A stretch of DNA of 64,000 bases from Candidatus Omnitrophota bacterium (GTDB taxonomy: Bacteria; Omnitrophota; Gorgyraeia; Zapsychrales; Fredricksoniimonadaceae): positions 7,226-71,225 of the forward strand of contig JBAXRK010000007.1 of NCBI GenBank assembly GCA_037131245.1. Reading direction: 5' to 3'. Positions 1-45,789 of the stretch are shown in pieces; the first letter of the stretch is position 1; each line of letters begins with the position of its first letter. The position numbers and the translations under genes are program-made. The notes beneath the pieces were generated by a model. That model had not been told where the DNA came from and searched no databases. It saw only the letters and a program-made list of their open reading frames with translations.

Positions 1-581
1 TGACATTGACCATTTTGTCAAAGTTTCCCGACCCTGACGTTCTGGCCGGTGTTGAACCGGCGCAGAATGTTATCTTGGCCTCAACACTTAATACCGAGCA
101 TGTTCGGGTCCGCTATGAACGCGGGACCCCTTCGTCTGCCCAACGCCTGAAAGCTCTCGCGACGCTTAAAAAGCAGGGGTGGAAGGTGGCGGTCCGGGTC
201 GATCCCGTGATATTCTATCCCGGTTGGGCGGCTGAGTATGGCCGGCTTTTTAAACAGGCGCGCGCCTTGGGCCCGGAGGCGGTGGTTTTTGGTGTCCTAC
301 GGCACACGCCTGATATCTTCCGACGGTCGTCTACGGCTTTGCGCCGTAAGCTGGAGGAAGATGGTTTGTCCGACATGGGAAGCGGAGAAGAGCGCGTTGC
401 CGAAGTTCACTCTTTGATGCGCCGGTCGCTGGGGACAGCGCTCATGCGGCGTTCTTTACCAATATCATTTAGGGCTGTTCGTCAACCTCTGCCGCTTTTA
501 TGGACCCGCGGGATCGCGGCTAATCCTTTGACGGCGGGTTTGGAGAAGCAGCTTCAGCAAATGGGAATATATGAGCGTTAA
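1..581 (+). CDS. Radical-SAM enzyme, SplB/COG1533-like, C-terminal part only (5' end lies upstream of the window)
   Basis: The frame is open to the window edge. Segment VRVDPVIFYPGWAAEYGRLFKQA resembles the C-terminal half of spore-photoproduct-lyase-type radical-SAM proteins (recalled from memory, not searched). The stop overlaps the next start by 11 nt. Confidence 0.4.
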   Translation, partial: TLTILSKFPDPDVLAGVEPAQNVILASTLNTEHVRVRYERGTPSSAQRLKALATLKKQGWKVAVRVDPVIFYPGWAAEYGRLFKQARALGPEAVVFGVLRHTPDIFRRSSTALRRKLEEDGLSDMGSGEERVAEVHSLMRRSLGTALMRRSLPISFRAVRQPLPLLWTRGIAANPLTAGLEKQLQQMGIYER

Positions 582-1746
582 GGCATCCAACGTTTATTTA
601 AAAAGTTTTTCATGTAATACGGGAAGTGTTTTTCTCGCCCGGCTAGAGCAGCGCTTAAACGCCTTTAAGGGTTTGACGCTTAGCGTCCCGTCGCGTACTT
701 TTTTTGGCAATGACCTGCCTGATCATTTTGCTGACATCCAGGCGGCGGCGCAATGCCGGGTGTGTATCATTGACGGTTGCGCGGTGATGGAATATATCCA
801 TCGGGACGTTCTTGATTATATTGCTCGCTTAAGGGATATGGCGCCGGAAGTGGTCCTGGTCCTGACCGGTTGCGCGGCCAGTTACGCCGTTAAACGGCAG
901 GCTGTTCCCGATGGCATTGCCTGCGCGTCTGATAATATTGATGATATTTGCGCGTTTATTGGTACGCAACTTGGTTTAAGCGCCAGCCCCTCTGTCGATC
1001 GGGCGGCGGTCGATGAACTGATCGCCGACCCGCGCAGTGGCGGTGTCCTGGTACGCTGGGGGTGCAACAATCAGTGCGCGTATTGCGTCGTTCCCAAAGT
1101 CAGGGAAGCCGGCCGGCGGCAGATGGATGTGCCGGCGGAGCGTATTGTTGAAGCCCTTAAGGGGATGTCCTCTCAGGGCATTGATCCGGCGATGCTCAGC
1201 GGCGTGTGTATCAGTTCCTGGCGCGGCCAGATCAAGGGACGCAAAGGAACCTTTGATGATCTGCTGGATCTGATCTTGAAAGAAACACCGGTGCGCATTG
1301 CCCGGCTTTCTTTGCAGCCGAAAGATATCACGCCCAGGACGCTGGAGCTGATCCAAAGTGAGCGGATCCTGCGCCCCTGGATGATCGCGGTCCAGCATTT
1401 TTCCGACCGGATTTTAAAAGCGATGCGCCGGCAGTACGATTCTTACAAGGTGGGGGAGATCTTTGATTTCTTCAAGGCGTCGGGATTGCAGGGGGGCGTG
1501 ATCACCGATCTTATTGTTGGTTTTCCGGGTGAGACGGCCGAAGACCTGGAGTCCCTGGATGTTTTTTTGCGGCGTTATGCGAAGGTTTTGGCCCGGGTGA
1601 AAGTGAGTGCTTACAGCGACCGTGGCCTTACCCTGTCTTCTAAAATGACAGGCCAGATCTCCGAGGAAGAGAAGAAAGAGCGCTCCCGTCTGGTGGCCGG
1701 TTTTTGCGCCAGGCACGGCGTGCCTTGCGAGGAGCTGACGCTATGA
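571..1746 (+). CDS. Radical-SAM methylthiotransferase-like enzyme (MiaB/RimO family architecture, no TRAM domain)
   Basis: CNNQCAYC (aa 165-172, nt 1063-1086) is a CxxxCxxC motif. The N-terminal domain has MTTase-like Cys contexts (FSCNTG, CRVCIIDGC, LTGCAAS). The downstream LIVGFPGETAEDLE block is typical of MiaB/RimO. At 391 aa the protein ends without room for a TRAM domain. Confidence 0.6.
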   Translation: MSVKASNVYLKSFSCNTGSVFLARLEQRLNAFKGLTLSVPSRTFFGNDLPDHFADIQAAAQCRVCIIDGCAVMEYIHRDVLDYIARLRDMAPEVVLVLTGCAASYAVKRQAVPDGIACASDNIDDICAFIGTQLGLSASPSVDRAAVDELIADPRSGGVLVRWGCNNQCAYCVVPKVREAGRRQMDVPAERIVEALKGMSSQGIDPAMLSGVCISSWRGQIKGRKGTFDDLLDLILKETPVRIARLSLQPKDITPRTLELIQSERILRPWMIAVQHFSDRILKAMRRQYDSYKVGEIFDFFKASGLQGGVITDLIVGFPGETAEDLESLDVFLRRYAKVLARVKVSAYSDRGLTLSSKMTGQISEEEKKERSRLVAGFCARHGVPCEELTL

Positions 1747-2697: not shown

Positions 2698-3411
2698 ATG
2701 AGCAAGACAACGGTCATTGTCACGGGTGGATCAAGGGGCCTGGGCCTGGAATTGGTCCGGGTTTTGTTGCGTGAGGGGTATCAGGTCGCGACGTGTTCGC
2801 GGACTTTGTCTCCGGAGCTCCAGGCCCTGCGCGCGCGGCATTCCGGCTTGCTATGGCAAAAGGTTGATGTGTCGGATGAGAAGCAGGTTAGGGTTCTTTA
2901 CGCGCGGGTTAAAGCCCGTTTTAAGAACATTGACGTTCTGATTAACAATGCCGCGATCCCCGGCCCTCTTGGCTTCTTTAAGGACGTTGCTTTGAAGGAT
3001 TGGGAGCAGGCTTTGCGTGTGAACCTGTTGGGAGCGGTCTATCATACCCATGCGGCTTTGCCTTTAATGGGCAAGAAGCCGGGTGGGCTTATTTTGAATG
3101 TTTCGGCGCCTGTCGCTGGTGATTTGGTCGGTTGCAGTGCTTACGCGGTCGCTAAAACAGCCTTGAATTATTTTTCCGATATTCTTGCGGCAGAATTGAA
3201 GAAAAGCCCTATTGAGGTCAGGACGGTGTTTCCGGGCACGATGGACACCGGGTTTGTTAAAGCCGCGCTGCGAGGCGCGGGAAAGAAGATCCCTTTTTCG
3301 GTGGAGCTGGCACGTCAGAAGCGGCTTGGGGCTTTGCCGGGAGCTGAAGCGGCGGCGGAGAAGATCGTCAGGATGATCGTCGAATGGAGCGCGCGCCATG
3401 GCCGGAAATAA
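2698..3411 (+). CDS. Short-chain dehydrogenase/reductase (SDR)
   Basis: The start is ATG 2698 after GGGAG. TGGSRGLG is a Rossmann motif, NNAA follows, and the Y-x3-K context is SAYAVAKTAL. Length is about 237 aa. Confidence 0.8.
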   Translation: MSKTTVIVTGGSRGLGLELVRVLLREGYQVATCSRTLSPELQALRARHSGLLWQKVDVSDEKQVRVLYARVKARFKNIDVLINNAAIPGPLGFFKDVALKDWEQALRVNLLGAVYHTHAALPLMGKKPGGLILNVSAPVAGDLVGCSAYAVAKTALNYFSDILAAELKKSPIEVRTVFPGTMDTGFVKAALRGAGKKIPFSVELARQKRLGALPGAEAAAEKIVRMIVEWSARHGRK

Positions 3412-4348
3412 AGAAGTGAAGCCGGTCAGAAGAATGCTGCTGGGGTTGACCGACCGCTGCAATATGCGCTGTTCTTATTGTTATGTGCCCTTAGGCCGGC
3501 GCGATATGACCCGGGCCGAGGTGCGTCGGCATTTGACCTGGTTCATTGACGCGCCTGGTGACCGGGAGAAACTGGTTTACCTTTACGGCGGCGAACCGTT
3601 CCTGGTCCCGGAGCTGATGGTTGATGCGGTTGGCTATGGGCAAAAGATCGCGGTCAAACGGGGGAAGAAACTATCTTTCATCGTTGTGACCAATGGAACG
3701 CTGGCCAGCCGGCTGGAGCTGTCGTTCTTTCTTGAGCATCAGATGAAGGTCATGGTCTCGTTCTCCGGTCGCGGCCGGGCCCATGATCGGGTAAGGCCGC
3801 TTCGCGGAGGTAAGGGAACATATGCCACGGCTCTTGCCACCTTGGAGAAATTTGTTGCCTTATTGCCGAATGATCGTCTTTGGTTAAGCGCGACGGTCAC
3901 GCCATCGGGCGTGCGAACGCTGGACGCTGATCTGCGTTATTTTGAAAAGCTGGGTGTAAAGAATTTTCATGTGGAACCGGTCATTCATCCGGACTATCTC
4001 TGGGATAAGCAGGCGGCTGTTTTGAAAGGAGCGGTGGAAGATTTTTTGAGCCGTTTAACGGCGCAGGCCGCGTCAAAAGACAAGAGTCTTTTTAATACGC
4101 TTTTGTGCCGGCAGCTGGAGATGCTTGAGGGGTTGTATCTGCCGCAGGACTATGTGCGTTACAATGATACTCGCTTTTATCCCGGCCGCCGGAGAATGTA
4201 TGATCATTTTGAATTGGATCAGGGGCAACGGCCCGTTTATCCGGTGTGGGACATACTTCGGCAGGTGACCCTGTCGGCGGCGACCGATATTGTTAGACGG
4301 ACAAGGTGCGCGCAATACGTGGAACGCGCTTTGGAAAGGGCCATTTAG
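3398..4348 (+). CDS. Radical-SAM enzyme (no obvious SPASM extension)
   Basis: The motif is CNMRCSYC, followed by YLYGGEPFL. The gene overlaps the SDR stop by 14 nt. Confidence 0.7.
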   Translation: MAGNKEVKPVRRMLLGLTDRCNMRCSYCYVPLGRRDMTRAEVRRHLTWFIDAPGDREKLVYLYGGEPFLVPELMVDAVGYGQKIAVKRGKKLSFIVVTNGTLASRLELSFFLEHQMKVMVSFSGRGRAHDRVRPLRGGKGTYATALATLEKFVALLPNDRLWLSATVTPSGVRTLDADLRYFEKLGVKNFHVEPVIHPDYLWDKQAAVLKGAVEDFLSRLTAQAASKDKSLFNTLLCRQLEMLEGLYLPQDYVRYNDTRFYPGRRRMYDHFELDQGQRPVYPVWDILRQVTLSAATDIVRRTRCAQYVERALERAI

Positions 4349-4359
4349 GGGAGGCGCTC

Positions 4360-5163
4360 ATGGCGGCAAAAAAGAAAGTGATCTTAAATTGGAGCGGGGG
4401 GAAAGATTGTACGCATGCTTTGCATGTCCTTCAGCAGTCGGGTCGGTATGATGTGGTCGGGCTTCTTGAAATAGCGGGCACTCACCGGAATTTACAGCAC
4501 GGGATCCCGCACGCTTTGATCCAGGCGCAGGCGGATAGCCTTGGCTTGCCGTTATTTCGGCATATTGTTACCTGGGACACCAAATCCCTGGCCTTGACCA
4601 GGAACGCTTATCGGGACCTGGTGATCCGGGACCCCGGATTTCACGCGAAACTGCAGGCTTTCAAGAAACTAGGCGTTGCATATCTGGCCGGTGGGGACAT
4701 TGATCCCGACAGTTTTCAGCTCAGGGTGAAGGTCCTGGCGCAATTCGACTCGCTTAAGGCTTTGTGCCCTCTGATCTGCCCGGGCCTGGACCATCGTCTT
4801 TCTGGTGAGGAACGCCGGCAGAGGATGCGGGCTCATTCTTTGGAGCTTGCCCACCGGTTCATCAAAGCCGGTTTTAAGGCTTTGGTCGTTAAAGTTAACC
4901 TTAATACGGAGCGAGGCGACCAAGGCCGGGCGGCCTCTCTGAAGCTTCTTGGCCGCGATTACAACGGGGCTTTTTTGTCTTCCCTGGACAGTTCCATGGA
5001 TCCCTGCGGCGAGTTTTATGAATTCCACACTTTTGTTTACGATGGGCCGGGCTTCCGGAAGAAAGTGGATTTTACGAAAGGCCCGGTGCGTTATGTCAGT
5101 GAGATGGATTACGGGATGCAAGCTATGCTGGATCTAAGCCCGAAGGGCCTGCCGAAAGGATAA
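4360..5163 (+). CDS. PP-loop ATP pyrophosphatase, Dph6/MJ0570 (DUF71)-like
   Basis: The start is ATG 4360 after GGGGAGG. The N-terminal LNWSGGKDC is a PP-loop (SGGKD) and the C-terminal motif is GEFYEFHTFVYDGP. The family assignment is from memory. Confidence 0.6.
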   Translation: MAAKKKVILNWSGGKDCTHALHVLQQSGRYDVVGLLEIAGTHRNLQHGIPHALIQAQADSLGLPLFRHIVTWDTKSLALTRNAYRDLVIRDPGFHAKLQAFKKLGVAYLAGGDIDPDSFQLRVKVLAQFDSLKALCPLICPGLDHRLSGEERRQRMRAHSLELAHRFIKAGFKALVVKVNLNTERGDQGRAASLKLLGRDYNGAFLSSLDSSMDPCGEFYEFHTFVYDGPGFRKKVDFTKGPVRYVSEMDYGMQAMLDLSPKGLPKG

Positions 5164-5266: not shown

Positions 5267-6385
5267 ATGCGATTTCTTTTCTGCCTGATCGTGCTCTTGT
5301 TTGCTGGTGCCGCTTCCGTTAATGCGGCCGAATCCGCCGCTTGTCCGGTGGGGAGTTCCTGTTCGGATAATTTACCGACCGCGATCGCGGCGGCTTTCAG
5401 CTCGATCAACTGGGATACCTTTACGATCCCTTCTCCGACCTGCCTGGCGGATTGTAGTTGTACGCCAGTCACTGATACGATGCAGTTGGTATGCCTGAGG
5501 GTTAGGGATATGAGGGTTGATGCGATCTATAATTCGATTGCTACCTCGATCGCTGCTGACCCGACGATCTATGGGACAGTTGCCGCCACCGCGAGCAGTA
5601 ACATAACGGCGGCTTTCTCCGGTTTGACTACTCAGGATCAGGCGAAGGCTGCAACGTTGACGCCTAATTTGGTGACCTGGTGGAATTTTAAGATGTGCCG
5701 CAATCAATCGGTTTGTTATGTCTCTGGGGCGCCGGTCGCGGATGGAACCAAACTTCCGGCATCGGTCAATACCCTTGCGGCGTGCAATAATTATAACGGT
5801 ACCGGTTTGTGTGTTAATGCGATGGTTAAACCGAGTTTGACCGCTTCCTGCACCGGGACGCCGACTTTGCTCAATACCAAAGCGAGTCCTGCTAAGGATG
5901 CATGCGTTATTTTAAGCTCCTCAGCTTTTGATCTGACAGCCTTCAATGACTACTATACACTGACCTGCCCGGCGGATAATACGTGCCAGAATGTTCCTCC
6001 GACCGATCCGAGCTATGCCACCAAATTTATTTCGCAGGATACAGTAGCCGGTCTGTTGGCTTTGGCGGAAGGCAATCGCTATGGTGCCGCTAAATATTGC
6101 GAGGATTATGTCCGCGATTATGTGCATGCTCAGGTGCCGGCCGATATATGGACCCCAGCCCGGTATCAATTGATATGGAATTGTAAAATAGCTTTCGGCC
6201 CAGCGGGAACGCGGGATCAGTTGAAAGCGGATATCACCAAATGGGAAGAGAAGGTGTGTGATATGACCTGCGATTCGACGACGGCTCATCCTTATACGAT
6301 CGTTGATACGAGTGTGAAGGATTTTTGTACGGGGACACCGGATACGTATCCCTGGCCTTTGCTGATCGATTACAGTTTGCTGTGA
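5267..6385 (+). CDS. Secreted cysteine-rich protein, unknown function
   Basis: The Sec-type signal peptide is MRFLFCLIVLLFAGAASVNA/AE. The mature part has about 19 Cys (hand count). It is rich in Thr/Ala/Asn/Pro and I recognise no domain. Confidence 0.6.
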   Translation: MRFLFCLIVLLFAGAASVNAAESAACPVGSSCSDNLPTAIAAAFSSINWDTFTIPSPTCLADCSCTPVTDTMQLVCLRVRDMRVDAIYNSIATSIAADPTIYGTVAATASSNITAAFSGLTTQDQAKAATLTPNLVTWWNFKMCRNQSVCYVSGAPVADGTKLPASVNTLAACNNYNGTGLCVNAMVKPSLTASCTGTPTLLNTKASPAKDACVILSSSAFDLTAFNDYYTLTCPADNTCQNVPPTDPSYATKFISQDTVAGLLALAEGNRYGAAKYCEDYVRDYVHAQVPADIWTPARYQLIWNCKIAFGPAGTRDQLKADITKWEEKVCDMTCDSTTAHPYTIVDTSVKDFCTGTPDTYPWPLLIDYSLL

Positions 6386-6401: not shown

Positions 6402-6704
6402 ATGGTGATCTCGTTACAGAAAGAAGTTTATCCTCCTGAAGCGGTGCTTCAGGCGTGTTATCAGTTCCTTGAGAAAGCGTATTTCTTTATTGATCTTGAC
6501 GCGTCGGGGCAGGTGATCAGGGTCCATATTTCCCGGAAAACCGGGCCGCTTAACAAGGCGTTCAAAAATGTTTTTCTGGAAGAGTTGCTGCATTCTTCGC
6601 TGCGGTTCCAGCTGGCCCGTCGTAATCGCAAACTGCGAGAGTTCATCGTTGGCAGTGCTTTGTTTTCCCGTGATGCCGCGGCCGGAAAGAAACATGTCAA
6701 ATAA
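6402..6704 (+). CDS. hxsD: HxsD-like small protein (His-Xaa-Ser system accessory protein), copy 1
   Basis: It is 100 aa. KEVYPPEAVLQACYQF lies near the N-terminus. ELLHSSLRF sits where the TIGR03976 family carries its LLNDYxLRE signature (from memory). It is immediately upstream of the paired rSAM maturases. Confidence 0.5.
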   Translation: MVISLQKEVYPPEAVLQACYQFLEKAYFFIDLDASGQVIRVHISRKTGPLNKAFKNVFLEELLHSSLRFQLARRNRKLREFIVGSALFSRDAAAGKKHVK

Positions 6705-6921
6705 TAAGCCGGGAACCTGGCGTTTGCTATTTGATAAAAGGGTCTACCCGCTGCGCGCGGTGAAGGCGGCGGCTGATGACTTTTCGCATTTGGGGCGCTT
6801 TGCTGTCCGTCCGGTTCAAGGAATGATCGAAGTGAGCGCTCAGGTGCCAGCGGACGCTTCGCCATCATTGCGTGCGGAGTTCGCGAATTACGCGCTGGGG
6901 GCCGTATGCCAGGGCCGTTGA
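6694..6921 (+). CDS. HxsD-like small protein, copy 2 (divergent paralogue)
   Basis: ATG 6694 overlaps the upstream stop by 11 nt. KRVYPLRAVKAAADDF parallels KEVYPPEAVLQACYQF of copy 1. The C-terminal EFANYALG resembles the DYxL part of the family signature. Confidence 0.45.
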   Translation: MSNNKPGTWRLLFDKRVYPLRAVKAAADDFSHLGRFAVRPVQGMIEVSAQVPADASPSLRAEFANYALGAVCQGR

Positions 6922-8360
6922 AAGGGTTGGAACCCTACGCTTATTTTCGTTTCAGGAAGTTGGGGCGCTCGGTATTGCTGACCAATGAAACGGGTGAGTT
7001 CCAGCATGTGACCCCGGCCCAGTTTGCCGCCATGTCCGCCGGTAAGCTTAAAGCCCTGTTCCCGGACACGTACCAGGCGCTGCGGGACAAGAATTTTGTC
7101 AGGTCTGTTCTTTCAAAGCAAAAAGTAGCCGAACGTTACGCCGGAAAATATTTTGTCGGCGAGGGGTCCAGCCTGCATATTGTGGTCTTAACGCTGCGCT
7201 GCGACCAGGCCTGTGTGTATTGCCATGCCAGCGCGCAGTGCGGCGGTGGCCATGGGCTTGATATGCCGCTTGAGCTGGGCCGCCGGGTGGTTGAGAAGAT
7301 CTTTGAGTCACCATCGCCGACGCTCAGCATTGAGTTCCAGGGCGGCGAGCCGTTGTTGAATTTTGGGGTCCTCAAGGATATTGTCCTGCGGGCCAGTCGT
7401 AAAGCCGCCAGCGGCCAAAGGCCGGTTTCTTTTTCGGTGGTTTCCAATCTGGCGCCGTTGACGGATGAGATGTATCGGTTCTTTCTCAAGCATCATGTTC
7501 AGGTCTGTACATCTCTTGACGGGCCGAAGTGGCTTCATGACCTTCAGCGGCCGCGGGCTGACGGGCGCTCGTCGCACGGGATCGTGACGCGCGGTTTAAA
7601 ACGGCTCGCGACTCGCAAGGATGGGCGTAATGCGTCGTCTCTGCTGACGGTCACCCGCCGCAGTTTGCCCTACTACCGGGAGATCGTTGACGAGTATGTG
7701 AAGCAGGGCATGACGGTCATTCATTTGCGGCCGCTCAATCCTTTGGGCGCGGCGAAGAAAAAGACCGGGTCGATCGGGTATTCAGCGGAAGCATTTGTTA
7801 AGTTCTACCGGCAGGCTCTGGATCATATTTTGTCGCTCAATCGTCAGGGGCGTTTTTTATCTGAGCGCACGGCAGTGATCTATCTGACCAAGATCCTGAC
7901 CAGCACGGACCCGCGATACCTGGACTTGCGGTCGCCCTGCGGGGCGGGGATCGGGCAGGTCGTGTACAATCATGATGGTGATGTGTACACATGTGATGAG
8001 GGGCGGATGCTAGGCACGGCGGGCGATCCGGCGTTTCGGATAGGGCCGCTCGCGTCGTTCTCCTTTAAAACGCTGGGCGATAGCCCGGTGGTCAAGGCGT
8101 GTTGTACCGCGTCGTGCCTTGAGGTCGTGCCGGGTTGTTCCGAGTGCGCGTACAAGCCTTATTGCGGTGTGTGCCCGGTGCTTAACCACGCGATCGGCGG
8201 AAATGTGTTCCGGTCAGCGTCTTTTGTTTGCGAGATAAAAAAAGGGATCCTCGATCATTTGTTCGCAAGGCTCGAGGACCCGCGGGACAGGAAAATATTT
8301 TATCGATGGATCAATGCGCCAAGCGAGGAGGCCAAAGATGGCAAGCAAGAAAAAGGTTAA
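6906..8360 (+). CDS. hxsB: Radical-SAM/SPASM maturase, HxsB-like
   Basis: It is 484 aa. The N-terminal YAYFRFRKLGRSVLLTNETGEFQHVTPAQF precedes the core. The motif is CDQACVYC, followed by FQGGEPLL. C-terminal Cys clusters are CGAGIGQ...YTCDEG and CSECAYKPYCGVCP (SPASM-like). Assignment to HxsB rather than HxsC rests on length and memory only. Confidence 0.55.
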   Translation: MPGPLKGLEPYAYFRFRKLGRSVLLTNETGEFQHVTPAQFAAMSAGKLKALFPDTYQALRDKNFVRSVLSKQKVAERYAGKYFVGEGSSLHIVVLTLRCDQACVYCHASAQCGGGHGLDMPLELGRRVVEKIFESPSPTLSIEFQGGEPLLNFGVLKDIVLRASRKAASGQRPVSFSVVSNLAPLTDEMYRFFLKHHVQVCTSLDGPKWLHDLQRPRADGRSSHGIVTRGLKRLATRKDGRNASSLLTVTRRSLPYYREIVDEYVKQGMTVIHLRPLNPLGAAKKKTGSIGYSAEAFVKFYRQALDHILSLNRQGRFLSERTAVIYLTKILTSTDPRYLDLRSPCGAGIGQVVYNHDGDVYTCDEGRMLGTAGDPAFRIGPLASFSFKTLGDSPVVKACCTASCLEVVPGCSECAYKPYCGVCPVLNHAIGGNVFRSASFVCEIKKGILDHLFARLEDPRDRKIFYRWINAPSEEAKDGKQEKG

Positions 8361-8649
8361 AAAAGCGGGCGTGATCCCAAGGATATCTAAAGGGGTCAAG
8401 GATTTCATGATGGATGAGGAAGGCAAGATCAAAAAGAAGGACATCGCCAAGCTGGGTGTGTCGATGGCCGCGCTGGGCATGATGGTGCATTCGGACGCGG
8501 CGGCCGACGTGACCTGCCCCTATATCACCTCGGATTCGCATTCCAATGCCCTGGTCCTGCCGGTAGCACCCAAGACCTGCTATGAGCACGCGAACACGCA
8601 TACGAATCATTGTAATCATTCGAGCCATAGTGTGGGTGGTTGGTGCTAA
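8338..8649 (+). CDS. hxsA: HxsA-like precursor peptide/protein with C-terminal His-x-Asn/Ser repeat and 4 Cys
   Basis: ATG 8338 lies 5 nt after GAGGAGG, inside the 3' end of the upstream maturase gene. The 103-aa product ends ...CYEHANTHTNHCNHSSHSVGGWC. The stop overlaps the start of the next rSAM gene. Alternative internal starts at 8407/8410 would give a classical Sec signal peptide. Confidence 0.6.
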   Translation: MASKKKVKKAGVIPRISKGVKDFMMDEEGKIKKKDIAKLGVSMAALGMMVHSDAAADVTCPYITSDSHSNALVLPVAPKTCYEHANTHTNHCNHSSHSVGGWC

Positions 8650-9761
8650 AAGCCGCTCAGAAAGAGCTGCAGATCTTTTTGACCGATCGCTGTCAGTTGT
8701 CTTGCCGGTACTGCTATCTTGACCGCCGTGCAAAAAAAGACCTGTCCTGGCCCCTGGTCAAGAAAGCAGTCACGGATTTTTTGGATGGGGCGTCAGCCCC
8801 CCGGGTTGTTTCATTCTATGGCGGCGAACCGCTGCTTTCGTTCCCTCTTTTCAAACGCACTGTTGAGTTCATCCGTCGCGATCATTCGCCGGCGGATGTT
8901 TTTCTTTATCTGGCGACGAACGGGATCCGGGTTGACCGGAAGGTTGCGGCTTTCTGCGCGGCGCAGGCGGTCACGGTTTTGCTGAGTTTCGACGGCCGCC
9001 GTGACCGGCATGATGGCCAGCGTTGCGGTGCTGTGGAGAGCAGTTACGATGCCGCCCGGTCGGCGCTCAAGCATTTGCAAAAAGCGCGTGTTCCGGTGAT
9101 CGCGAATATGGTGATCCGGCCGCAGGATGCCTCGTCCTGGGTAGATGATCTTAAGCATGTGGTCGGTTGTGGTTTCACGCAGGTCCAGTTGCTCCCGGAT
9201 GCGGCGGCCATCTGGTCAACGGTTGAGATCAACCGTTTCGCCCGGTCGCAGCGGGATTTTGTTAGGATGAACATCGATCATTTCACCCGGAAAGGGGCGA
9301 GTGTTTTTACGGTCGAGCAGGTGCGCCGTTTGATCTCATTACGCGATAACCGGGGGGCATGCGGTTGCAATAAACGCATCTTGTCTGCCGATGGAAAATA
9401 TTATGCCTGTGATAAGGCGCTGGCTTGTTCTTCTGATGGCCGTCAGCCGTATGCGACCGGAGATGCCCTGGCAGGGTTTGACGCGGATGGCCGCCGGAAG
9501 ATCATCGGCCGGCTTGATCGCCGGGTAAAAGCCGCAGAACGCGGCAGGCGTTGTGCGGCTTGCCGCTGGCGTGAGGTATGTTTTTGTCCTTTGGGCCTTC
9601 CCGTGTTGAGCGGGGTAGATCCGGACCTTGGTCAGCGCTGGAATTCTTTTTGCCGCATCTCGGACCTGCTGCTGACCTCCTGCCGGCAGATCGTCCTGAA
9701 ATTAAAGGATGAGCCGCGCTTTTGCCGGGCGTACCAACTTAGGCCGGACGCGCCGGCCTGA
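8640..9761 (+). CDS. hxsC: Radical-SAM/SPASM maturase, HxsC-like
   Basis: It is 373 aa. The motif is CQLSCRYC, followed by FYGGEPLL. C-terminal clusters are CGCNKRILSADGKYYACD and CAACRWREVCFCPLG (SPASM-like). It is paired with the upstream maturase across the precursor gene. The start codon (TTG 8640 or GTG 8643) is uncertain. Confidence 0.55.
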   Translation: MVLKAAQKELQIFLTDRCQLSCRYCYLDRRAKKDLSWPLVKKAVTDFLDGASAPRVVSFYGGEPLLSFPLFKRTVEFIRRDHSPADVFLYLATNGIRVDRKVAAFCAAQAVTVLLSFDGRRDRHDGQRCGAVESSYDAARSALKHLQKARVPVIANMVIRPQDASSWVDDLKHVVGCGFTQVQLLPDAAAIWSTVEINRFARSQRDFVRMNIDHFTRKGASVFTVEQVRRLISLRDNRGACGCNKRILSADGKYYACDKALACSSDGRQPYATGDALAGFDADGRRKIIGRLDRRVKAAERGRRCAACRWREVCFCPLGLPVLSGVDPDLGQRWNSFCRISDLLLTSCRQIVLKLKDEPRFCRAYQLRPDAPA

Positions 9762-9776
9762 ATGTTTTGAGGGACA

Positions 9777-10514
9777 ATGGCTATTACCGGAAAACTATTA
9801 GTGATCGATCTCGACGGCCGTTGTAACTGCCGTTGTGTTTTTTGCCTTAAAGAGGACGCTATCCTGACCGCGCCGCGCCGTACCTTGGCCGGGACGCTGA
9901 CGCAGATCCGCCAGGGCATTACCGCCGGCATCGACAGTGTGGATTTTTTCGGTGGTGAACCGACCATGTATCCTTTCCTCAAGAAAGCAGTTGTCTTCAC
10001 GCAGCGGAAGGGATTAAAGGCTTTTCTGGCTACGAACGCGATCGCCTTTTCTTCAAAGGCCTACACGACAGCATTTTTTAAAGGTCTCAAGCCTTTAGCC
10101 GTACGGACCACGCTGCATAGCCATCACGCTGACGTGCATGAGCGGATCACCCGGACGCCCGGCAGTTGGGCCCGGACCATCAAGGGGATAGGCCATTTGC
10201 TGGCGGCCAATGAGCAGGTCACGGTGAACATTGTGATCAATCGCTGGAATTATCGCGAGCTGGTCGCGTGGACCCGGTTCCTGTACGGGCTCGGGGTGCG
10301 TTCCGTGAAATATTCGGCCCTGCAGCACACCGGCGGTGCTTTGGCTTGCGAGGAATTGTGGGTGGGAGATAAACAATACGCGGCCCCGTTACTGAAGGCG
10401 TTGCGCGCAGCATCGAAATTAGGCTTTTATTTTATTGAACTCGAAATGATCCCCGGGCCTGTCGTAGACAAAGCCCGGGGAATGAAGATCAATTGCCACA
10501 GCCGAAGACCCTGA
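9777..10514 (+). CDS. Small radical-SAM enzyme (core domain only)
   Basis: The motif is CNCRCVFC (CxxxCxxC), followed by FFGGEPTM. It is 245 aa with no auxiliary Cys cluster. It is the last gene of the + strand block. Confidence 0.65.
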   Translation: MAITGKLLVIDLDGRCNCRCVFCLKEDAILTAPRRTLAGTLTQIRQGITAGIDSVDFFGGEPTMYPFLKKAVVFTQRKGLKAFLATNAIAFSSKAYTTAFFKGLKPLAVRTTLHSHHADVHERITRTPGSWARTIKGIGHLLAANEQVTVNIVINRWNYRELVAWTRFLYGLGVRSVKYSALQHTGGALACEELWVGDKQYAAPLLKALRAASKLGFYFIELEMIPGPVVDKARGMKINCHSRRP

Positions 10515-12093
10515 AATAGAGGTCCTTGTAGTTACAGGCAAACTTCGCAGGCATCGGGATCTTGTCGGTCATTGGCAGGATCTTGTAGCAGTAAGCGATC
10601 TGCCCTTTGCGGTCCGTTATTTTGTGTTCGTCATCCATGCAATCATAGAACGGTTTGTCGAGTTGCCTGATCGGCGGAACATTGTCTGAGGTGGCTTGGT
10701 AACAGATGGTCCCGTCCTTGGAAAAACATATCCCGATATAGCCGCACACATCAGTGGTCGGATTGGGCGGGCAGATCGCCGGGTCTTCCTGTGAATCGCA
10801 AAGTTTATCACCTTGCACGACAGTCCAGGTAGAGGTCCAGTTCTTGTTGGTAGTATCCGGCCACCAACCGTACCAGCACGCATTCTGTGTGCAGCTTTCA
10901 TTTTCATGCAGCCCGTTAGCGCCCTCAACGTTGGGTGAATACCCTCCGGGACAGGTCCGTTCGCAATAACGATCGGGTGAGCATTGCCCGGTGGCCCCGT
11001 AATTTTTCAAATAGACGTAGTGATTACGATAGGCGTTAATTTTTTCTTGAATGCCTGTTTCGACATATTTGGTCAGGACCCGGTATGGATTGTGATTCGC
11101 TTGCATTGCTATGACCCGGTGCGCCTGAAGCAGGTCCATGTTCGCCGGAGTGGGCGGGAGGGTTGCCATATTCGGCGGATTATCACCCGCATTGGCCGCG
11201 CTCTGGCGGTAAATAACTTCTTTCACCAATTGCCAGCGCTGCGGTATGGAAAGACTATCGTCGTTCTCCAGGCTCATGGCATTTTCGTTAACGTTATGGG
11301 TATCGTCTTCCAAGGTCGTTGAATTAGAGATAATGGTACAAGGCTTTGAGTGCGGGTAAGGATATTGCCAGCAGGAAGGCAGGCAGTTCTGTTCGGTTTC
11401 ACCGCCGAAGCCGTCATGCTTACAGCCGTAAATGGTGTCGGGTGTTGACGGGTGAAGGGCATTGGCGCATTGTTTCGAGTAAATCCGTTCCCCGATCGCG
11501 CAGTCTTTGGTGTCATAAGTCCCCAGGCCGGCTTGAGTCTGGGTGCATGTTCCGATCGGATTAGCGAACTCGCCATTAAAGCGCGCGTCGACCGCGGACC
11601 GGACAGGGTTGCATAGGTTTGCGGCCGAGGGCGCGATCCCGGTGGCCGCCAGGATCTTGGTGCCGCAGCCGACCGGTTTAGCTTCGGTGCAACAGGTTTC
11701 ATCAGGGATCCAGGCTTCTTCCTGGGCGCATTTCAACGGGGTGCATGTGCGGTAATAGTAGCGCATGGTCGGCTTGTTCTTATCCGCGCCGCAATCGCCT
11801 TTGGTCCAGGTATTGATGATCGCCTTCTTCCAGTCGTTATAGTGGGTGGTTTGGTCGGGAAGCGTGACCGGATTGGCCGAACATTTGCAGCTTTTGGGTG
11901 TCAGGGACGGGTCGAGCGTGCTATCTTGTTCGATCTTTTCAGAGGTGGCATCCTTGACGCTTTCTTCGGTCAGCTTGAAATAACCCTGAACCCCTTTGAG
12001 GAGCATGGGGCCGCCGATCGCAATACCGGCCAGGATGATCGTGGCAAGCAGGATATATTCAAGAGCGGATTGGCCTTTTTTCATCAAGCGCAT
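10489..12093 (-). CDS. Flp/class-III-signal prepilin-like N-terminus fused to a ~500-aa cysteine-rich extracellular domain
   Basis: The preferred start is ATG 12093, with GAGG 5 nt upstream. The N-terminus is MRLMKKG/QSALEYILLATIILAGIAIGG, which fits the G/XXXXEY prepilin signature plus a hydrophobic helix. The rest has about 30 Cys by hand count. The 3' end overlaps the convergent rSAM gene by 26 nt. Confidence 0.6.
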   Translation of the reverse strand: MRLMKKGQSALEYILLATIILAGIAIGGPMLLKGVQGYFKLTEESVKDATSEKIEQDSTLDPSLTPKSCKCSANPVTLPDQTTHYNDWKKAIINTWTKGDCGADKNKPTMRYYYRTCTPLKCAQEEAWIPDETCCTEAKPVGCGTKILAATGIAPSAANLCNPVRSAVDARFNGEFANPIGTCTQTQAGLGTYDTKDCAIGERIYSKQCANALHPSTPDTIYGCKHDGFGGETEQNCLPSCWQYPYPHSKPCTIISNSTTLEDDTHNVNENAMSLENDDSLSIPQRWQLVKEVIYRQSAANAGDNPPNMATLPPTPANMDLLQAHRVIAMQANHNPYRVLTKYVETGIQEKINAYRNHYVYLKNYGATGQCSPDRYCERTCPGGYSPNVEGANGLHENESCTQNACWYGWWPDTTNKNWTSTWTVVQGDKLCDSQEDPAICPPNPTTDVCGYIGICFSKDGTICYQATSDNVPPIRQLDKPFYDCMDDEHKITDRKGQIAYCYKILPMTDKIPMPAKFACNYKDLYFRVFGCGN

Positions 12094-18747: not shown

Positions 18748-21177
18748 ATGAAAAAAACCATCCTACTCCCTTTCATTGTTACAGGCTTTGTTCTTTCCAT
18801 CGGGTCTTTGGCTATGGCCGAGGATATGTCCGGCAACACGGTCGCTAAAGAGGCGGATGTTGCCGCCACGCTTGACGCGGTCGAGATGAACGCGCCGGTG
18901 GCTGTACCCGCGGCTGAGCCCGCTCCGGCCGCGCCACCCTCTGAGGATGCGATGGCCGGCAAGCAGGTGGCAGCCATTGATATTCAGGGTAATAAGAGCA
19001 TCGGGGTCGCCACGATCCTGGCCAAGATCAAGACGCGCGTTGGCCAGGAATACCGCCAGAACGTTATTTCGGATGACCTCAAGCGTTTGTACAATACCGG
19101 CTACTTTTCTGATGTCCGGGTCGATCGCAAGGAAGAGGCGGCGGGCCTGAAAGTGATCATTATCCTGGAAGAGAAGCCGATCGTTGATGAGATCACTTTT
19201 TCGAAGATCAAGTATTTTAACAAGAAGGTGATCCTCTCCAAGATCAAGATACAGAGCGGCAAGTTCCTGGACAAGAAGTCCCTTAATGACGACATTAATA
19301 CTATTGAAGAGATGTACGCCAAGAAAGGCCTGACGCAGGTCAAGGTTGATGTCGAGCAGTTCGTGGATGCGGCGACCAATAAAGCGTCACTGCATTTTAT
19401 TATCCGTGAAGGCTACCGGGTCAAGATCAGGAAGATCAAGGTCCTTGGTAACCTGGCCTATAACGACGACAAAGTCATCAAGGCGATGAAGTCCCGTTCG
19501 GCCTGGTTGTTCAATTCCGGTTTTCTTAAGGAAGATGTTCTGACTGAAGATATGGACCGCATCGCCGCTTTTTACGAGAAGAACGGCTATATTGATGCCA
19601 AAGCCACCTATACGGTCGAGCAGTTACAGCATGGCCTGGTGAATGTGGATGTGACCGTTGAAGAGGGCAAGCGGTATTATGTCGGGGATATCCAGTTCAA
19701 GGGTAATGTGGTTTTGACTGAGCCGGAAGTGGCCGGTGCCATGAAGGATATTAAGAGGGGAAAGATCTTCTCCAAGGCGAAATTGGCCGATGATGTGGCC
19801 AATATCAAGTCGCTGTATTTTGACCGTGGCTATATCTTTGCCAAAGTTGAGGAGTCAACCTCCCTGAACCCCGGGGACGGGAAAGTAGACCTTAAGCTCG
19901 ACATCGTTGAGGGCGGGGTGGCTTACATTAACAAGATCAAGATCCAGGGGAATACGCAGACGCGGGATATTGTTATCCGCCGTGAACTGCGGATGTATCC
20001 GGGCGATCAGTTTGACGGCGTCAAACTGCGCCGCAGCAAAGAGCGCCTGAATAACCTGGGGTATTTTGAAGACGTCGGCTTTGACATCGAGGATACGGAA
20101 ACGCCCGACCAGAAAGACCTGGTGGTCGATGTCAAGGAAGCCAAAACGGGCAGTTTCAGTTTTGGCGGCGGGTACAGCACCGTCGACCAGCTGATCGGTT
20201 TCGTCGAACTTGACCAGAAGAACTTCGATTTTTCGAACTGGCCGAGCTTTACCGGCGGTGGTCAGCGGGTGACGGCCCGGGCTGAAGTGGGCTCAAGCCG
20301 CAATAATATCCTGCTCTCCTTTACGGAGCCCTGGATGTTCGATTATCCTGTTTCCGGTGGATTCGATCTTTACCGTTCGCAGTATAACCGTTCGAGCAGC
20401 ACGGGTTATGCTTACGACCAGACGCGCATCGGCGGCAAGTTGCGCGCGGGCAAAGAGTTGTCCGAATATGTTTCTACGGCCGGGTATTACCGTCTGGAAA
20501 GCGTCGATATCAGCAACATGGAAGATAATGTGTCGGCTGACCTTAAAGACGAACAGGGCAAGAGCAATCTGAGCGTGTTCGGCGCTTCGGTTTCCAATGA
20601 TCATCGCGACAGCACCATTTCGCCTACCAAGGGCTGGTTGGTTTCTGCCGCGGGCGACCTGGCAGGCGGGCCGGTCGGCGGGACCAAGGACTTCTATCGC
20701 CTGGAGACGAATGGTTCCTACTATATCCCCTTGCGTTTTAACTCGGTGGTGGAGTTCTCCGGCCGGTTGGGGATGGTGACGTCCTATGGTAAATCCAGCA
20801 AGGTGCCGATATTCGAGCGTTATTTCGCGGGTGGCGCCCGCACGATCCGCGGGTACAGCGAGCGCGCTGTTGGCCCCATTGACCCGGGTAATAGCGACCC
20901 GATCGGCGGCGAGGGCATCATGTTGGGCAGCGTTGAGTACACGATCCCGCTTATTGACGTGATCAAGTTCGCCACGTTCTTTGATTCCGGGACGGTGTCG
21001 GCGAAGTACGGCGACGTGCTTTCTGAAAAGCTTTACTCCGGGACCGGTATCGGTTTCCGTGTTAAAACGCCCATTGGCCCGATGAACCTTGATTACGGTA
21101 TTCCCTTGAATACCGAACCGGGGCAATCTTCGCGTTCAAGCGGGAAGTTCTATTTCAGCGTTAGTAGAGGATTTTGA
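18748..21177 (+). CDS. bamA: Outer membrane protein assembly factor BamA
   Basis: It has a signal peptide, POTRA-type repeats and a C-terminal Omp85 barrel ending FYFSVSRGF. It is followed by skp and lpxD. Confidence 0.9.
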   Translation: MKKTILLPFIVTGFVLSIGSLAMAEDMSGNTVAKEADVAATLDAVEMNAPVAVPAAEPAPAAPPSEDAMAGKQVAAIDIQGNKSIGVATILAKIKTRVGQEYRQNVISDDLKRLYNTGYFSDVRVDRKEEAAGLKVIIILEEKPIVDEITFSKIKYFNKKVILSKIKIQSGKFLDKKSLNDDINTIEEMYAKKGLTQVKVDVEQFVDAATNKASLHFIIREGYRVKIRKIKVLGNLAYNDDKVIKAMKSRSAWLFNSGFLKEDVLTEDMDRIAAFYEKNGYIDAKATYTVEQLQHGLVNVDVTVEEGKRYYVGDIQFKGNVVLTEPEVAGAMKDIKRGKIFSKAKLADDVANIKSLYFDRGYIFAKVEESTSLNPGDGKVDLKLDIVEGGVAYINKIKIQGNTQTRDIVIRRELRMYPGDQFDGVKLRRSKERLNNLGYFEDVGFDIEDTETPDQKDLVVDVKEAKTGSFSFGGGYSTVDQLIGFVELDQKNFDFSNWPSFTGGGQRVTARAEVGSSRNNILLSFTEPWMFDYPVSGGFDLYRSQYNRSSSTGYAYDQTRIGGKLRAGKELSEYVSTAGYYRLESVDISNMEDNVSADLKDEQGKSNLSVFGASVSNDHRDSTISPTKGWLVSAAGDLAGGPVGGTKDFYRLETNGSYYIPLRFNSVVEFSGRLGMVTSYGKSSKVPIFERYFAGGARTIRGYSERAVGPIDPGNSDPIGGEGIMLGSVEYTIPLIDVIKFATFFDSGTVSAKYGDVLSEKLYSGTGIGFRVKTPIGPMNLDYGIPLNTEPGQSSRSSGKFYFSVSRGF

Positions 21178-21808: not shown

Positions 21809-22849
21809 ATGCGCCAAACCCTGAACGAGATCGCTCAGCTGGTTGGCGGCAGGCTTGTTGGTGACGGGGGGATGGTCATTACCGGGGTCTCCGGCATCAA
21901 GGAGGCTGTGCCTGGCGACCTGACTTTCCTGGCTAATCTGAAATACCTGCCTTTAGCTTCGTCCACTCAAGCTTCAGCGATCATTGTTGGCCGCGATGTG
22001 CTTATCAGCGGGAAAGCGGTCATTCAGGCCGATAATCCTTCGATGGCCTTCGCCAGGGTCGTTGGCATGATCAAAGAGAATTTAACGCCGCGGATCTCGG
22101 GTATCCACCCGACCGCGGTCGTTGCCTCCGATGCTGTTTTGGGGGAGGGCGTTGGTATCGGACCGCACGTGGTGATCGAAAGCGGCGTCCGTATTGGCAA
22201 GAACAGCCTTATTTGCGCGGGTGTTTTCGTCGGTCAAAAGTCCTTGCTGGGGGATAATGTCCTTATTTATCCGAATGTGACCATCCGCGAGGATGTGTCC
22301 ATTGGTAACCGGGTCATTATCCACAGCGGTACGGTCATTGGTTCCGACGGTTTTGGTTATCTTCAGGTGGGGGACCGTCACGAGAAGATCCCTCAGATGG
22401 GGACGGTGGTCGTTGAGGATGATGTTGAGATCGGCGCCTGTGTGACGGTCGATCGCGCGCGGTTCGATAAAACACTGATCGGCCGCGGCACCAAGATCGA
22501 TAATCTGGTGCAGATCGCGCATAATGTCCGCATTGGTGAGAATTGCCTGATCATTGCCTTGGCCGGGATCGCGGGGAGTGCCACCATAGGCAATAACGCG
22601 ATCATTGCCGGTCAGGTGGGTGTGGCCGGGCATGTGACCGTTGGTGAACGGGCGGTGGTCGCCGCGCAGTCGGGGATCACCAAAGATGTCGAGCCGCAAG
22701 CGAAGATGTTCGGCACACCCGCCGAAGAATATTCCAAGGCGACTCGCGTGATGGCGCATGTTAAACGCCTGCCGCGTTACGCCGATGAGCTTAAGGAGCT
22801 TAGGCAGAGAATTCAGCAATTGGAAGAAAGATCAGGGAAGGGCGCGTAA
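21809..22849 (+). CDS. lpxD: UDP-3-O-acylglucosamine N-acyltransferase
   Basis: It has hexapeptide repeats and the LpxD N-terminal domain. The operon context supports the call. Confidence 0.9.
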
Positions 22850-26854: not shown

Positions 26855-27068
26855 GAGTGTTCTTAGCAATAAATCAGCGTTTTAATTTTTCCACCGATTT
26901 TGCCCCAAATCGTGTTATTTAGACTAAATCCCCTTCATCTTCATGGCTTTACGATAATTAGCCATCTTTAGGCAAGAAAACGCTTTCCCTTATAACGCCT
27001 CGTTGCCCCCGTTTCCCCCTATTAATATTGTAAACTTATCTAGTAGTGTCCTTGGCAAGGGAAGGGTT

Positions 27069-45471: not shown

Positions 45472-45789
45472 ATGGGGCATATAGTTGTGCTGGTGACCGC
45501 CAAGGACCAGAGCGAGGCTGAAAAGATCGCACGCGCCCTGCTGGAGAAAAAGCTGGCGGCGTGTTGTAATATTATCGGGGGGATCCGTTCCTTGTACTGG
45601 TGGCAGGGGAAGATCGCGGATGGCCACGAGGTCCTTTTGCTGGTCAAGAGCCGCGCGGATCTTTTTGAAGAAATAAAAGGGACGGTCATCGCCTGTCACA
45701 GCTATACCGTCCCTGAGATCATCGCCCTGCCGGTTTCGGATGGCAGCGCGCCGTATCTGGCCTGGCTTGACGCAAGCCTTAGATCTTGA
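45472..45789 (+). CDS. cutA: Divalent-cation tolerance protein CutA
   Basis: The internal ATG 45472 gives MGHIVVLVTAKDQSEAEKIARALLEKKLAACCNI. YWWQGKI and HSYTVPEI are present. Confidence 0.85.
   Translation: MGHIVVLVTAKDQSEAEKIARALLEKKLAACCNIIGGIRSLYWWQGKIADGHEVLLLVKSRADLFEEIKGTVIACHSYTVPEIIALPVSDGSAPYLAWLDASLRS

Follow-up and report, generated by a model that had tools for sequence, protein, structure and literature searches.

The question raised by this locus is what a 103-amino-acid (aa) open reading frame (ORF), wedged between two genes of radical S-adenosylmethionine (SAM) enzymes, encodes. The locus lies in a stretch of 64,000 nucleotides (nt) from a Candidatus Omnitrophota bacterium (NCBI GenBank assembly GCA_037131245.1, contig JBAXRK010000007.1, positions 7,226 to 71,225 of the forward strand); this whole stretch is called the window, its positions are used below, and the ORF occupies 8338..8649 of its plus strand. 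It is likely that the ORF is a divergent precursor of the HxsA3/A4 branch, of a subtype ending in GGWC, that belongs to an Hxs (His-Xaa-Ser) cassette and is matured and exported along the route proposed below. The Hxs families TIGR03976-03979 were defined computationally by Haft and Basu (2011), according to the citation of that work in PMC9062424.

The frame, as read from the sequence, runs over 103 codons from ATG 8338 to TAA 8647-8649, with His at positions 51, 68, 84, 88, 91, 94 and 97 and Cys at 60, 81, 92 and 103; its C-terminal 20 residues (nt 8587-8646) are HANTHTNHCNHSSHSVGGWC. The ORF shares its first 23 nt with the end of the upstream gene (stop codon 8358-8360), the flanking genes are 279 nt apart (8361-8639), and the overlap with the downstream gene amounts to 10 nt for a start of the latter at TTG 8640 or 7 nt for GTG 8643, the start in the public gene call. 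A preliminary description of this DNA had given the same frame, His and Cys positions, C-terminal residues, upstream overlap and 279 nt of otherwise non-coding sequence; the 10-nt downstream overlap stated there is correct for the TTG start and not for the public one, and the GAGGAGG placed there 5 nt upstream of the ATG is separated from it by 6 nt. A longer ORF from ATG 8314 was discarded, since it lacks a Shine-Dalgarno sequence and both the homologues and the public call begin at the equivalent of 8338. The starts ATG 8407/8410 were likewise rejected, as K18 and F23, both conserved and under selection, lie 5' of the two; the most conserved residues of the family (K18, F23, E27 and G29) are upstream of Met24/25 or straddle them, so that the start at ATG 8338 is supported and these alternatives are ruled out.

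An identical protein is already deposited in GenBank ('hypothetical protein WCO69_03975', Candidatus Omnitrophota). The closest homologue compared, 69% identical, is encoded in a syntenic cluster of another Omnitrophota genome (locus L001; related loci are numbered in this manner below), and codons of the two were compared by segment; synonymous/non-synonymous differences: 6/3 for aa 1-24, 12/4 for aa 25-49, 7/18 for the spacer, aa 50-83, and 8/4 for aa 84-103. The synonymous excess in the leader and in the His-rich tail, together with the replacements in aa 50-83, means that the ends are constrained and the spacer is free to vary; judged by these codon counts, the ORF is a real gene under purifying selection. 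H-x-N occurs four times and strict H-x-S once in the peptide. Among 200,000 composition-preserving shuffles, four His at period 3 were obtained in 0.07% and at least five H-x-[SN] in 0.03%, and the His pattern is therefore not an effect of composition. This ORF alone matched the family profile in the window, i.e., a scan with that profile found no second copy of the peptide there; Rfam and tRNA scans of the region gave no match, and a promoter/terminator scan of the region performed no better than on shuffled sequence.

Relatives were collected by searching 1.84 billion cluster representatives exhaustively with a profile (E up to 1e-3), which yielded 247 representatives, mostly of 80-130 aa and of one common layout: a basic N-terminal end with the motif P-x-I-K-K-x-I-K-D-F-L-x-x-E-E-G-K-I-x-K-K; a hydrophobic segment of ~12 residues followed by a Pro or polar residue and a small-x-small site (AxA); and a variable region, in which H-x-N-x-[FL] and G-G-H-x-S are often present, that passes into tandem H-x-S/N repeats. 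The window peptide gave 106.6 bits against the profile of the 131-member family alignment, in which it is itself included, and matched the NCBIfam model HxsA3 (NF038309) over profile positions 2-80 of 81 (E = 1.6e-9, 37.4 bits). HxsA3 matched 128 of the 131 members, HxsA4 64 and canonical HxsA 6; one Omnitrophota relative already bears the label HxsA4 from PGAP. An aromatic residue stands within the last three positions in 86/102 distinct family peptides, the commonest C-termini being HGQW, GGWC and HSSY. The third position of the repeat is Asn in 19% of family repeats, and the closest relatives alternate H-x-N with H-x-S; His-x-Asn is therefore normal variation within the family, and the earlier view of the peptide as a His-x-Asn variant of the His-Xaa-Ser precursor agrees with the full-length HxsA3 match and with the mixed repeats of the relatives. 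In family cores the His number as many as 37 and are separated by small residues (G, S, A), and the net charge is zero or below in 91% of the cores. By record labels, the hosts are Omnitrophota, Elusimicrobiota and many lineages of Patescibacteria; a few metagenome-assembled genomes are labelled Planctomycetia or Gammaproteobacteria.

With HxsA3 and HxsA4 (NF038309 and NF038313) the window peptide has in common the length class, the leader motif, the repeat logic and the place 3' of HxsB; it differs in its mostly H-x-N repeats, in the end GGWC instead of HGQW or HSSY, and in being accompanied by a PapB-like SPASM enzyme and one further radical SAM enzyme that the non-GGWC members lack. Because curated models for the branch exist, the locus is not categorically new; a search of the literature found these NCBIfam models and no publication on HxsA3, HxsA4 or Hxs in Omnitrophota. 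What is new here is the link of GGWC to the SPASM enzyme; the layout of leader, export signal and core is now documented over ~250 cluster representatives.

The peptide itself is divided into a Lys-rich leader, a signal-peptide-like segment and a core (Table 1). At least 90% of the 131 family members share K18, F23, E27 and G29 of the leader, and the same level of conservation was seen for P14, K17, K18, E28, G29, K30 and I31 among 41 members; these residues would be the docking site for the maturase, we infer. The net charge over aa 1-36, ahead of the hydrophobic segment, is +7; the h-region comprises 12 residues with a mean Kyte-Doolittle hydropathy of 1.97, and the c-region carries small residues at -3/-1 (A54-A-A56 followed by D57). 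A 12-residue hydrophobic segment with small-x-small within 14 residues was counted in 129/131 family members by a heuristic pattern measure. An AlphaFold2 model (41 sequences) showed two helices in all, 16-26 in the leader with moderate to low confidence and 33-49 with a predicted local distance difference test score (pLDDT) of 77-81, and a disordered core. From these sequence features, the peptide is probably exported and cleaved by signal peptidase. The core D57-C103 (6 His, 4 Cys, net charge -2) contains H68, invariant in 19 close relatives, and the repeat His H84, H88, H91, H94 and H97, which are conserved in the homologue alignments; C103 is the sole Cys conserved in the GGWC subtype. The possibility that all four Cys are important was rejected, C60, C81 and C92 being common only to the nearest homologue. 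A Pfam scan of the 103-aa peptide gave no domain and, specifically, no peptidoglycan-binding domain.

Several proposals of the preliminary description are to be read against these data. The bipartite leader, left there beside a start at 8407/8410, is to be preferred, as the upstream residues are the most conserved of the family and are under purifying selection. The Sec signal peptide is suggested by the hydrophobic segment and small-x-small site shared by nearly all members, although its n-region is atypically long. Conservation of the His/Cys pattern in relatives extends to the frame, the repeat His and the terminal Cys, and not to the remaining three Cys. Both neighbours are radical SAM/SPASM genes as described, the upstream one being HxsB, above the trusted cutoff, and the downstream one PapB-like with seven SPASM Cys.

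Related loci were assembled from exact-protein look-up (7), GTDB species genomes (54) and metagenomes (80); the search for homologous loci was run with 19 closer sequences, the 131-sequence alignment having no conserved stretch to search with. The order HxsD, (HxsD-like), HxsB, peptide was found in most of the ~130 related loci with contigs long enough; the peptide gene follows HxsB immediately and is itself followed by a varying number of radical SAM genes. A precursor between radical SAM genes is thus the rule of the branch and not a peculiarity of the window. In other loci an HxsC-like enzyme of 295-304 aa, for which HxsC4 and HxsC rank first, below their cutoffs, usually comes after the peptide. 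In the window, the six Hxs genes (6402-10514) all overlap or abut. HxsB is 37% identical to canonical HxsB; its CxxxCxxC (C99/103/106) and its C-terminal SPASM cysteines recur in as many as 91 homologues, the nearest solved structure by sequence is 5WGG, and the N-terminal 97 aa stand where 5WGG has its N-terminal domain. HxsD is 70% identical to the syntenic gene of L001 and 26% to canonical Aeromonas HxsD; its AlphaFold2 model, from a 3-sequence alignment, was too poor (pLDDT 49) for a fold search. A homologue of the HxsD-like protein occupies the equivalent position in many related loci. The last gene of the cassette (rSAM3) has CxxxCxxC alone conserved, with no auxiliary-cluster domain or further conserved Cys.

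The link between the C-terminus and the downstream SPASM enzyme (rSAM2) was obtained from 102 distinct family peptides with complete C-termini, 18 of which end in W-(x)-C, every one in the form GGW(x)C, and 84 otherwise. An rSAM2 orthologue (at least 100 bits, within 4.5 kb of the peptide) was found near 13/18 W-(x)-C peptides and 0/84 others, where the best score was 85 (Fisher p = 9e-13); an orthologue of rSAM0, a radical SAM enzyme encoded further upstream (at least 75 bits), in 10/18 W-(x)-C loci and 1/84 others (Fisher p = 2e-8); and a secreted Cys-rich protein of ~250 aa in 12/18 and 11/84 (Fisher p = 9e-6). The gene of the latter, where present, lies between HxsB and the peptide in most W-(x)-C loci, and rSAM2 orthologues usually begin at, or within, the stop codon of the peptide gene. 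GGWC loci are found in at least four separate places of a neighbour-joining HxsB tree, their sister loci having other termini and no such enzyme; peptides of the sister clade of the window end in HSSY or HGSY. The consensus of the subtype is H-x-[SN]-H-[SG]-x-G-G-W-C.

The conserved Cys of rSAM2 are C18/22/25 and seven in the C-terminal part (C243, C257, C305, C308, C314, C316 and C338), the latter kept in 12-14 of 14 orthologues. The nearest NCBIfam families are PapB, CXXX-repeat, CcpM, SCIFF and QhpD, all of which form Cys thioethers; the nearest solved structure is again 5WGG, which we take to be CteB, the Cys-thioether-forming SCIFF maturase, and residue 4 of rSAM2 aligns from chain residue 93, the enzyme having no N-terminal recognition domain. 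From the chemistry of these families and of 5WGG, together with the co-occurrence with GGWC, it is suggested that rSAM2 probably acts on the terminal Cys and cross-links it; sactipeptide-like Cys cross-linking, raised in the preliminary description, has indirect support in that it fits the association of the GGWC tail with the SPASM enzyme. The resemblance to PapB, CteB and QhpD comprises best family and structure matches, the seven-Cys SPASM signature, a conserved candidate target that contains Cys and the position of the SPASM gene next to a Cys-containing precursor; QhpD/QhpC is, moreover, a precedent for radical-SAM cross-linking ahead of export to the periplasm. The differences are scores far under the family cutoffs (114 vs 340 for PapB), the missing N-terminal recognition domain and a candidate target that is a single C-terminal W-C in place of repeated CxxxD/E or Cys-rich motifs.

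Table 1: Features of the Hxs cluster and its upstream flank (window positions).
Feature	Position	Strand	Remarks
HxsA3/A4-type precursor peptide, GGWC subtype (likely)	8338..8649	+	103 aa plus stop
Shine-Dalgarno-like GAGGAGG	8325..8331	+	6 nt 5' of peptide ATG, direct reading
Lys-rich conserved leader, aa 1-36	8338..8445	+	motif P14-R-I-S-K18-G-V-K-D-F23-M-M-D-E27-E-G29-K-I-K-K-K-D-I
Signal-peptide-like segment	8452..8505	+	h-region L39-V50 (LGVSMAALGMMV), c-region H51-S-D-A-A-A56, predicted cleavage before D57
Predicted 47-aa core D57-C103	8506..8646	+	variable spacer with conserved H68-S-N-A-L, then His repeats, tail
His-x-Asn/Ser repeat block H84-S98	8587..8631	+	HANTHTNHCNHSSHS
C-terminal G-G-W-C motif	8635..8646	+	likely target of downstream SPASM enzyme
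HxsD, small Hxs accessory protein, 100 aa	6402..6704	+	NCBIfam TIGR03976, 49.3 bits vs cutoff 50 (borderline); precomputed Pfam PF27806
HxsD-like protein, 75 aa	6694..6921	+	NCBIfam NF038315 HxsD_rel, 46.2 bits, cutoff 41; overlaps both neighbours
HxsB, radical SAM/SPASM maturase, 484 aa	6906..8360	+	NCBIfam TIGR03978, 476.4 bits, cutoff 370, profile positions 2-466 of 466
rSAM2, PapB-like radical SAM/SPASM enzyme, 372-373 aa	8640..9761	+	best NCBIfam PapB, 114 bits, cutoff 340
rSAM3, short HxsC-like radical SAM enzyme, 245 aa	9777..10514	+	HxsC4 71 bits (cutoff 500), HxsC 67 bits (cutoff 267.9)
rSAM0, radical SAM enzyme without SPASM domain, 316 aa	3398..4348	+	PapB-like over N-terminal core only; CxxxCxxC alone conserved
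Secreted Cys-rich protein, 372 aa	5267..6385	+	directly 5' of HxsD; no Pfam/NCBIfam family
MiaB/RimO-like methylthiotransferase relative, radical SAM	571-1746	+	173 bits, below cutoff
Radical SAM enzyme, 311 aa	1743-2678	+	
Short-chain dehydrogenase	2698-3411	+	
Dph6-like ATP pyrophosphatase	4360-5163	+	

A minimal 70-aa family member (L092 4423-4635, L094 602-814) has a core of ~16 residues, A-C-W-D-L-P-G-G-G-H-N-R-G-G-W-C, which is near-symmetric (CW...WC) with a single His; its gene is followed by a candidate rSAM2 orthologue (70-76 bits) and then by an A24-like gene. In L006 (6164-13138, GCA_002348085.1) three HxsB paralogues and two HxsD genes surround one GGWC peptide, whose HGS repeat is long, and there is no rSAM2 orthologue. 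Secreted Cys-rich proteins without a known family adjoin HxsD or sit between HxsB and the peptide in numerous loci (for example, L002 5525-6115 and 8231-8971, L005 6316-6897); one type has ~190 aa, a TTYYPSPFG motif and a C-terminal CC, another ~250 aa, and the 372-aa protein of the window is unrelated to them.

The following course is proposed. The peptide would be made with three parts, the leader (aa 1-36), the Sec-type segment with its A-A-A site (aa 39-56) and the 47-aa core, a layout that is read from the sequence. In the cytoplasm, by homology to the canonical system, the leader would recruit HxsB, accompanied by HxsD and the HxsD-like protein, and the H-x-S/N repeat region would be the target of HxsB and of the HxsC-like enzyme, as it is there; rSAM2 would act on the C-terminal Trp-Cys, most likely with formation of a thioether-type cross-link from the terminal Cys, and rSAM0 (3398-4348) may contribute too, to judge from its co-occurrence and family resemblance. 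Sec export would follow, signal peptidase I would remove leader and signal together before D57, and a cross-linked peptide of ~47 aa would be released to the periplasm. Genes of BamA with five POTRA domains (18748-21177), an LpxC-FabZ fusion (22849-24165) and a SurA-like chaperone (45779-47212), all on the minus strand of the window, indicate that the organism is diderm and that a periplasm exists.

A number of points weigh against this assignment. The 37.4 bits of the peptide are below the HxsA3 trusted cutoff of 65, and TIGR03979 (canonical HxsA), the model whose use had been recommended in the preliminary description, did not match the peptide at E up to 0.01. The signal assignment is one of heuristics, with an unusually long n-region of ~36 residues. 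An RRE/PqqD-like domain was not found in the HxsB N-terminus (nothing significant by Pfam and PDB profile search), and docking of the leader to the maturases is purely inferred. rSAM3 is far under both HxsC cutoffs and has neither the N- nor the C-terminal domain of the 401-aa canonical HxsC. Five of the 18 GGWC loci have no rSAM2 orthologue at the 100-bit threshold: three of them (L087, L092 and L094) have weaker candidates of 70-76 bits, the contig of L087 ending 897 nt past the peptide, and L004 and L006, with ample flanking sequence, have no candidate at all. The co-occurrence statistic ignores phylogeny, and the HxsB tree is a rough neighbour-joining one. Whereas the canonical repeats are rich in Arg, the core is acidic, and the published DNA-binding mechanism does not simply carry over. 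Finally, chemistry has so far been observed for no HxsA3/A4 peptide.

As to the role of the HxsA3/A4-type product, one other than the two considered next is the best guess, itself short of probable; an extracytoplasmic His-array that binds metal or a surface is a tentative second choice, and an HXS-like anti-phage envelope effector is doubtful. That the mature product is mainly metal-binding (Ni, Zn or Cu), as a periplasmic or extracellular metal chaperone or a metallophore, is possible but rather unlikely. Such a product would agree with a core that has 6 His and 4 Cys among its 47 residues, with the His period of 3, with the His-rich family cores (up to 37 His with small G, S, A between) and with the acidic or neutral charge of the core, which suits cations rather than DNA; composition is, however, the sole basis, no metal transporter or metalloenzyme gene is linked, the only metal-related family match is non-significant (UreE_C, E = 0.47, in one relative), and the need for up to six radical SAM enzymes is not accounted for.

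The canonical HxsD-B-C-A operon is an antiphage system in E. coli (Li et al., Nat Commun 2026, PMC13128918). Its HxsA is N-terminally processed and undergoes a +8 Da modification dependent on HxsB, HxsC and HxsD; it has a signal peptide, is periplasmic and blocks phage DNA entry, the effector being basic, anchored to peptidoglycan and engaging DNA electrostatically; 99.7% of the canonical systems are in Pseudomonadota. The +8 Da change is unexplained there, in vitro reconstitution having failed with HxsA insoluble and the enzymes scarce (PMC13128918). When the window was compared with a canonical Hxs operon on an Aeromonas plasmid, identities of 37% (HxsB), 26% (HxsD) and 20% (HxsC, over the radical SAM core alone) were obtained; the window peptide resembles Aeromonas HxsA only in the repeat block. 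The window is like the canonical system in its HxsB orthologue (476 bits) and HxsD-type small protein, in a substrate that carries an export signal (a predicted one in the window) and tandem His-x-Ser-type repeats with an aromatic residue after them, and, on the window side by homology, presumably in the maturation of that substrate by radical SAM enzymes before export; the homology of the maturation genes means that the maturation logic transfers to the window cassette. It differs in the substrate, which has 103 aa against about 190-214 aa and lacks the peptidoglycan-binding domain; in the leader of ~36 residues ahead of the signal, which in canonical HxsA is at the extreme N-terminus; in H-x-N/S repeats with small x and no Arg, in an acidic core, whereas the canonical 25-residue repeat segment is Arg-rich with a net charge of +4; in the gene order (D, D', B, A, X, C' vs D, B, C, A); in the replacement of HxsC by a 245-aa core-only relative and the presence of extra radical SAM enzymes; and in the host, Omnitrophota vs almost exclusively Pseudomonadota.

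It is accordingly to be weighed whether the cassette works like the published HXS, i.e., whether a radical-SAM-matured His-repeat effector in the periplasm keeps phage DNA out by engaging it electrostatically, and this appears improbable. HxsB, HxsD, the His-x-Ser-type repeat and an exported substrate (predicted for the window) are common to the window and the E. coli system (PMC13128918), and HxsB is 37% identical to that of a canonical plasmid-borne operon; on the other hand, the peptidoglycan-binding domain is missing, the length is 103 aa vs 192-214 aa, the charge of the core is -2 (91% of the family cores are at or below zero) vs +4 of the canonical repeat segment, the gene order is different, and HxsC is only remotely similar. 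The locus, moreover, lies amid housekeeping genes (glmU, prs, rplY, pth) and not in a defence island, and PADLOC gave generic radical-SAM matches only, none of them to the peptide. The family is also common in Patescibacteria, which are generally held to have no outer membrane.

A third possibility concerns processing: F-x-x-x-E-E-G/K (a slash marks the cut here and below) would be a class III prepilin-type site cut by a cluster-encoded A24 aspartic peptidase, and the peptide a pilin-like, membrane-inserted surface subunit. This seems very unlikely. The leader is basic and has an acidic-acidic-Gly motif: the near-invariant G29 comes after acidic residues, a feature also of Flp prepilins (for example, FLKDESG/ATAIEY), and several relatives read FLTDESGKITKKDA. 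A24-type genes with both catalytic Asp motifs were found in 8 related loci (~6 distinct), the contig of the window included; in L092/L094 the A24 gene is directly 3' of the SPASM gene, and in 7 of the 8 A24-bearing loci a classical prepilin ORF was not found. Unlike in Flp/Tad prepilins, however, Gly is followed by ~9 charged residues, KIKKKDIAK, instead of directly by a hydrophobic stretch, there is no Glu at +5, and Pfam Flp_Fap gave no match at E up to 10; the association with A24 genes is non-significant (3/18 W-(x)-C loci vs 4/84 others), and a 534-aa protein with a textbook class III signal (KKG/QSALEY), encoded in the window and in L001, is an obvious alternative substrate. The A24 homologues of L008 (1-497, just upstream of window position 1), L001 (17861-18769), L005 (11837-12796) and L094 (1936-2751) keep D-x5-I-x-N and GGDAKLF.

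Equally hard to credit is an uncleaved signal-anchor that would tether the His-rich tail to the outer face of the inner membrane: the long positive N-terminus (+7 over aa 1-36) before the hydrophobic helix would give the N-in, C-out topology, but an h-region of 12 residues is too short for a stable transmembrane helix, and the Pro or polar residue that comes next family-wide leads to a small-x-small site of the kind usual in substrates of signal peptidase I. A chance reading frame between two genuine genes, for which only the small size and the 'hypothetical protein' annotation speak, is already refuted by the conservation data, i.e., by the codon comparison, the 247 homologous cluster representatives and the place directly 3' of HxsB, kept in most related loci whose contigs reach there, with the strong Shine-Dalgarno-like sequence and shuffle tests at p below 1e-3 in addition; the preliminary description, too, had judged a shadow ORF unlikely.

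The surroundings of the HxsA3/A4-type cassette contribute the following. Six radical SAM genes, those of Hxs included, lie within 10 kb, and on the public contig an A24-type peptidase and two genes of no assigned function stand at the far upstream end of the cluster; glmU, prs, rplY and pth lie downstream. The secreted Cys-rich protein 5267..6385 is a possible partner of the Hxs cassette; it has a 31%-identical homologue at the same position in L001, and in other loci unrelated secreted Cys-rich proteins are found there. The 534-aa Cys-rich protein (10489-12093, minus strand; class III signal MRLMKKG/QSALEYILL; no Pfam/NCBIfam family) is encoded by a gene that converges on the end of the Hxs cluster with a 26-nt overlap, and its homologue flanks the cluster in L001. 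An ORF of 1157 aa at 27003-30476 (plus strand) had no Pfam match at E up to 1e-5.

A far-reaching extension of the proposal would treat the HxsA3/A4-type peptides as an undescribed class, similar to ribosomally synthesised and post-translationally modified peptides, of uncultivated small-cell bacteria, with a leader before the export signal, a modular radical SAM set with a SPASM enzyme dedicated to GGWC, and a cut by A24 at E-E-G/K giving a pilin-like His-array surface peptide. Taken as a whole this is a long shot; if it is true, the SPASM enzyme may make a new Trp/Cys-terminal cross-link.

For the family, the results have several consequences. Hxs-type cassettes are widespread in Omnitrophota, Elusimicrobiota and Patescibacteria, far beyond Pseudomonadota, and, to judge from the acidic cores, an antiphage mechanism based on DNA binding may not hold family-wide. 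The chemistry of Hxs maturation is unsolved; in this branch the precursors have ~100 aa, the leader is well delimited and the core short, and the accessory enzymes form a modular set in which co-occurrence can hint at a target, such as GGWC for the SPASM enzyme. The family may in this way lend itself better to in vitro reconstitution and to elucidating the roles of HxsB and HxsC; the GGWC-SPASM link is a concrete, testable assignment of an enzyme to its substrate.

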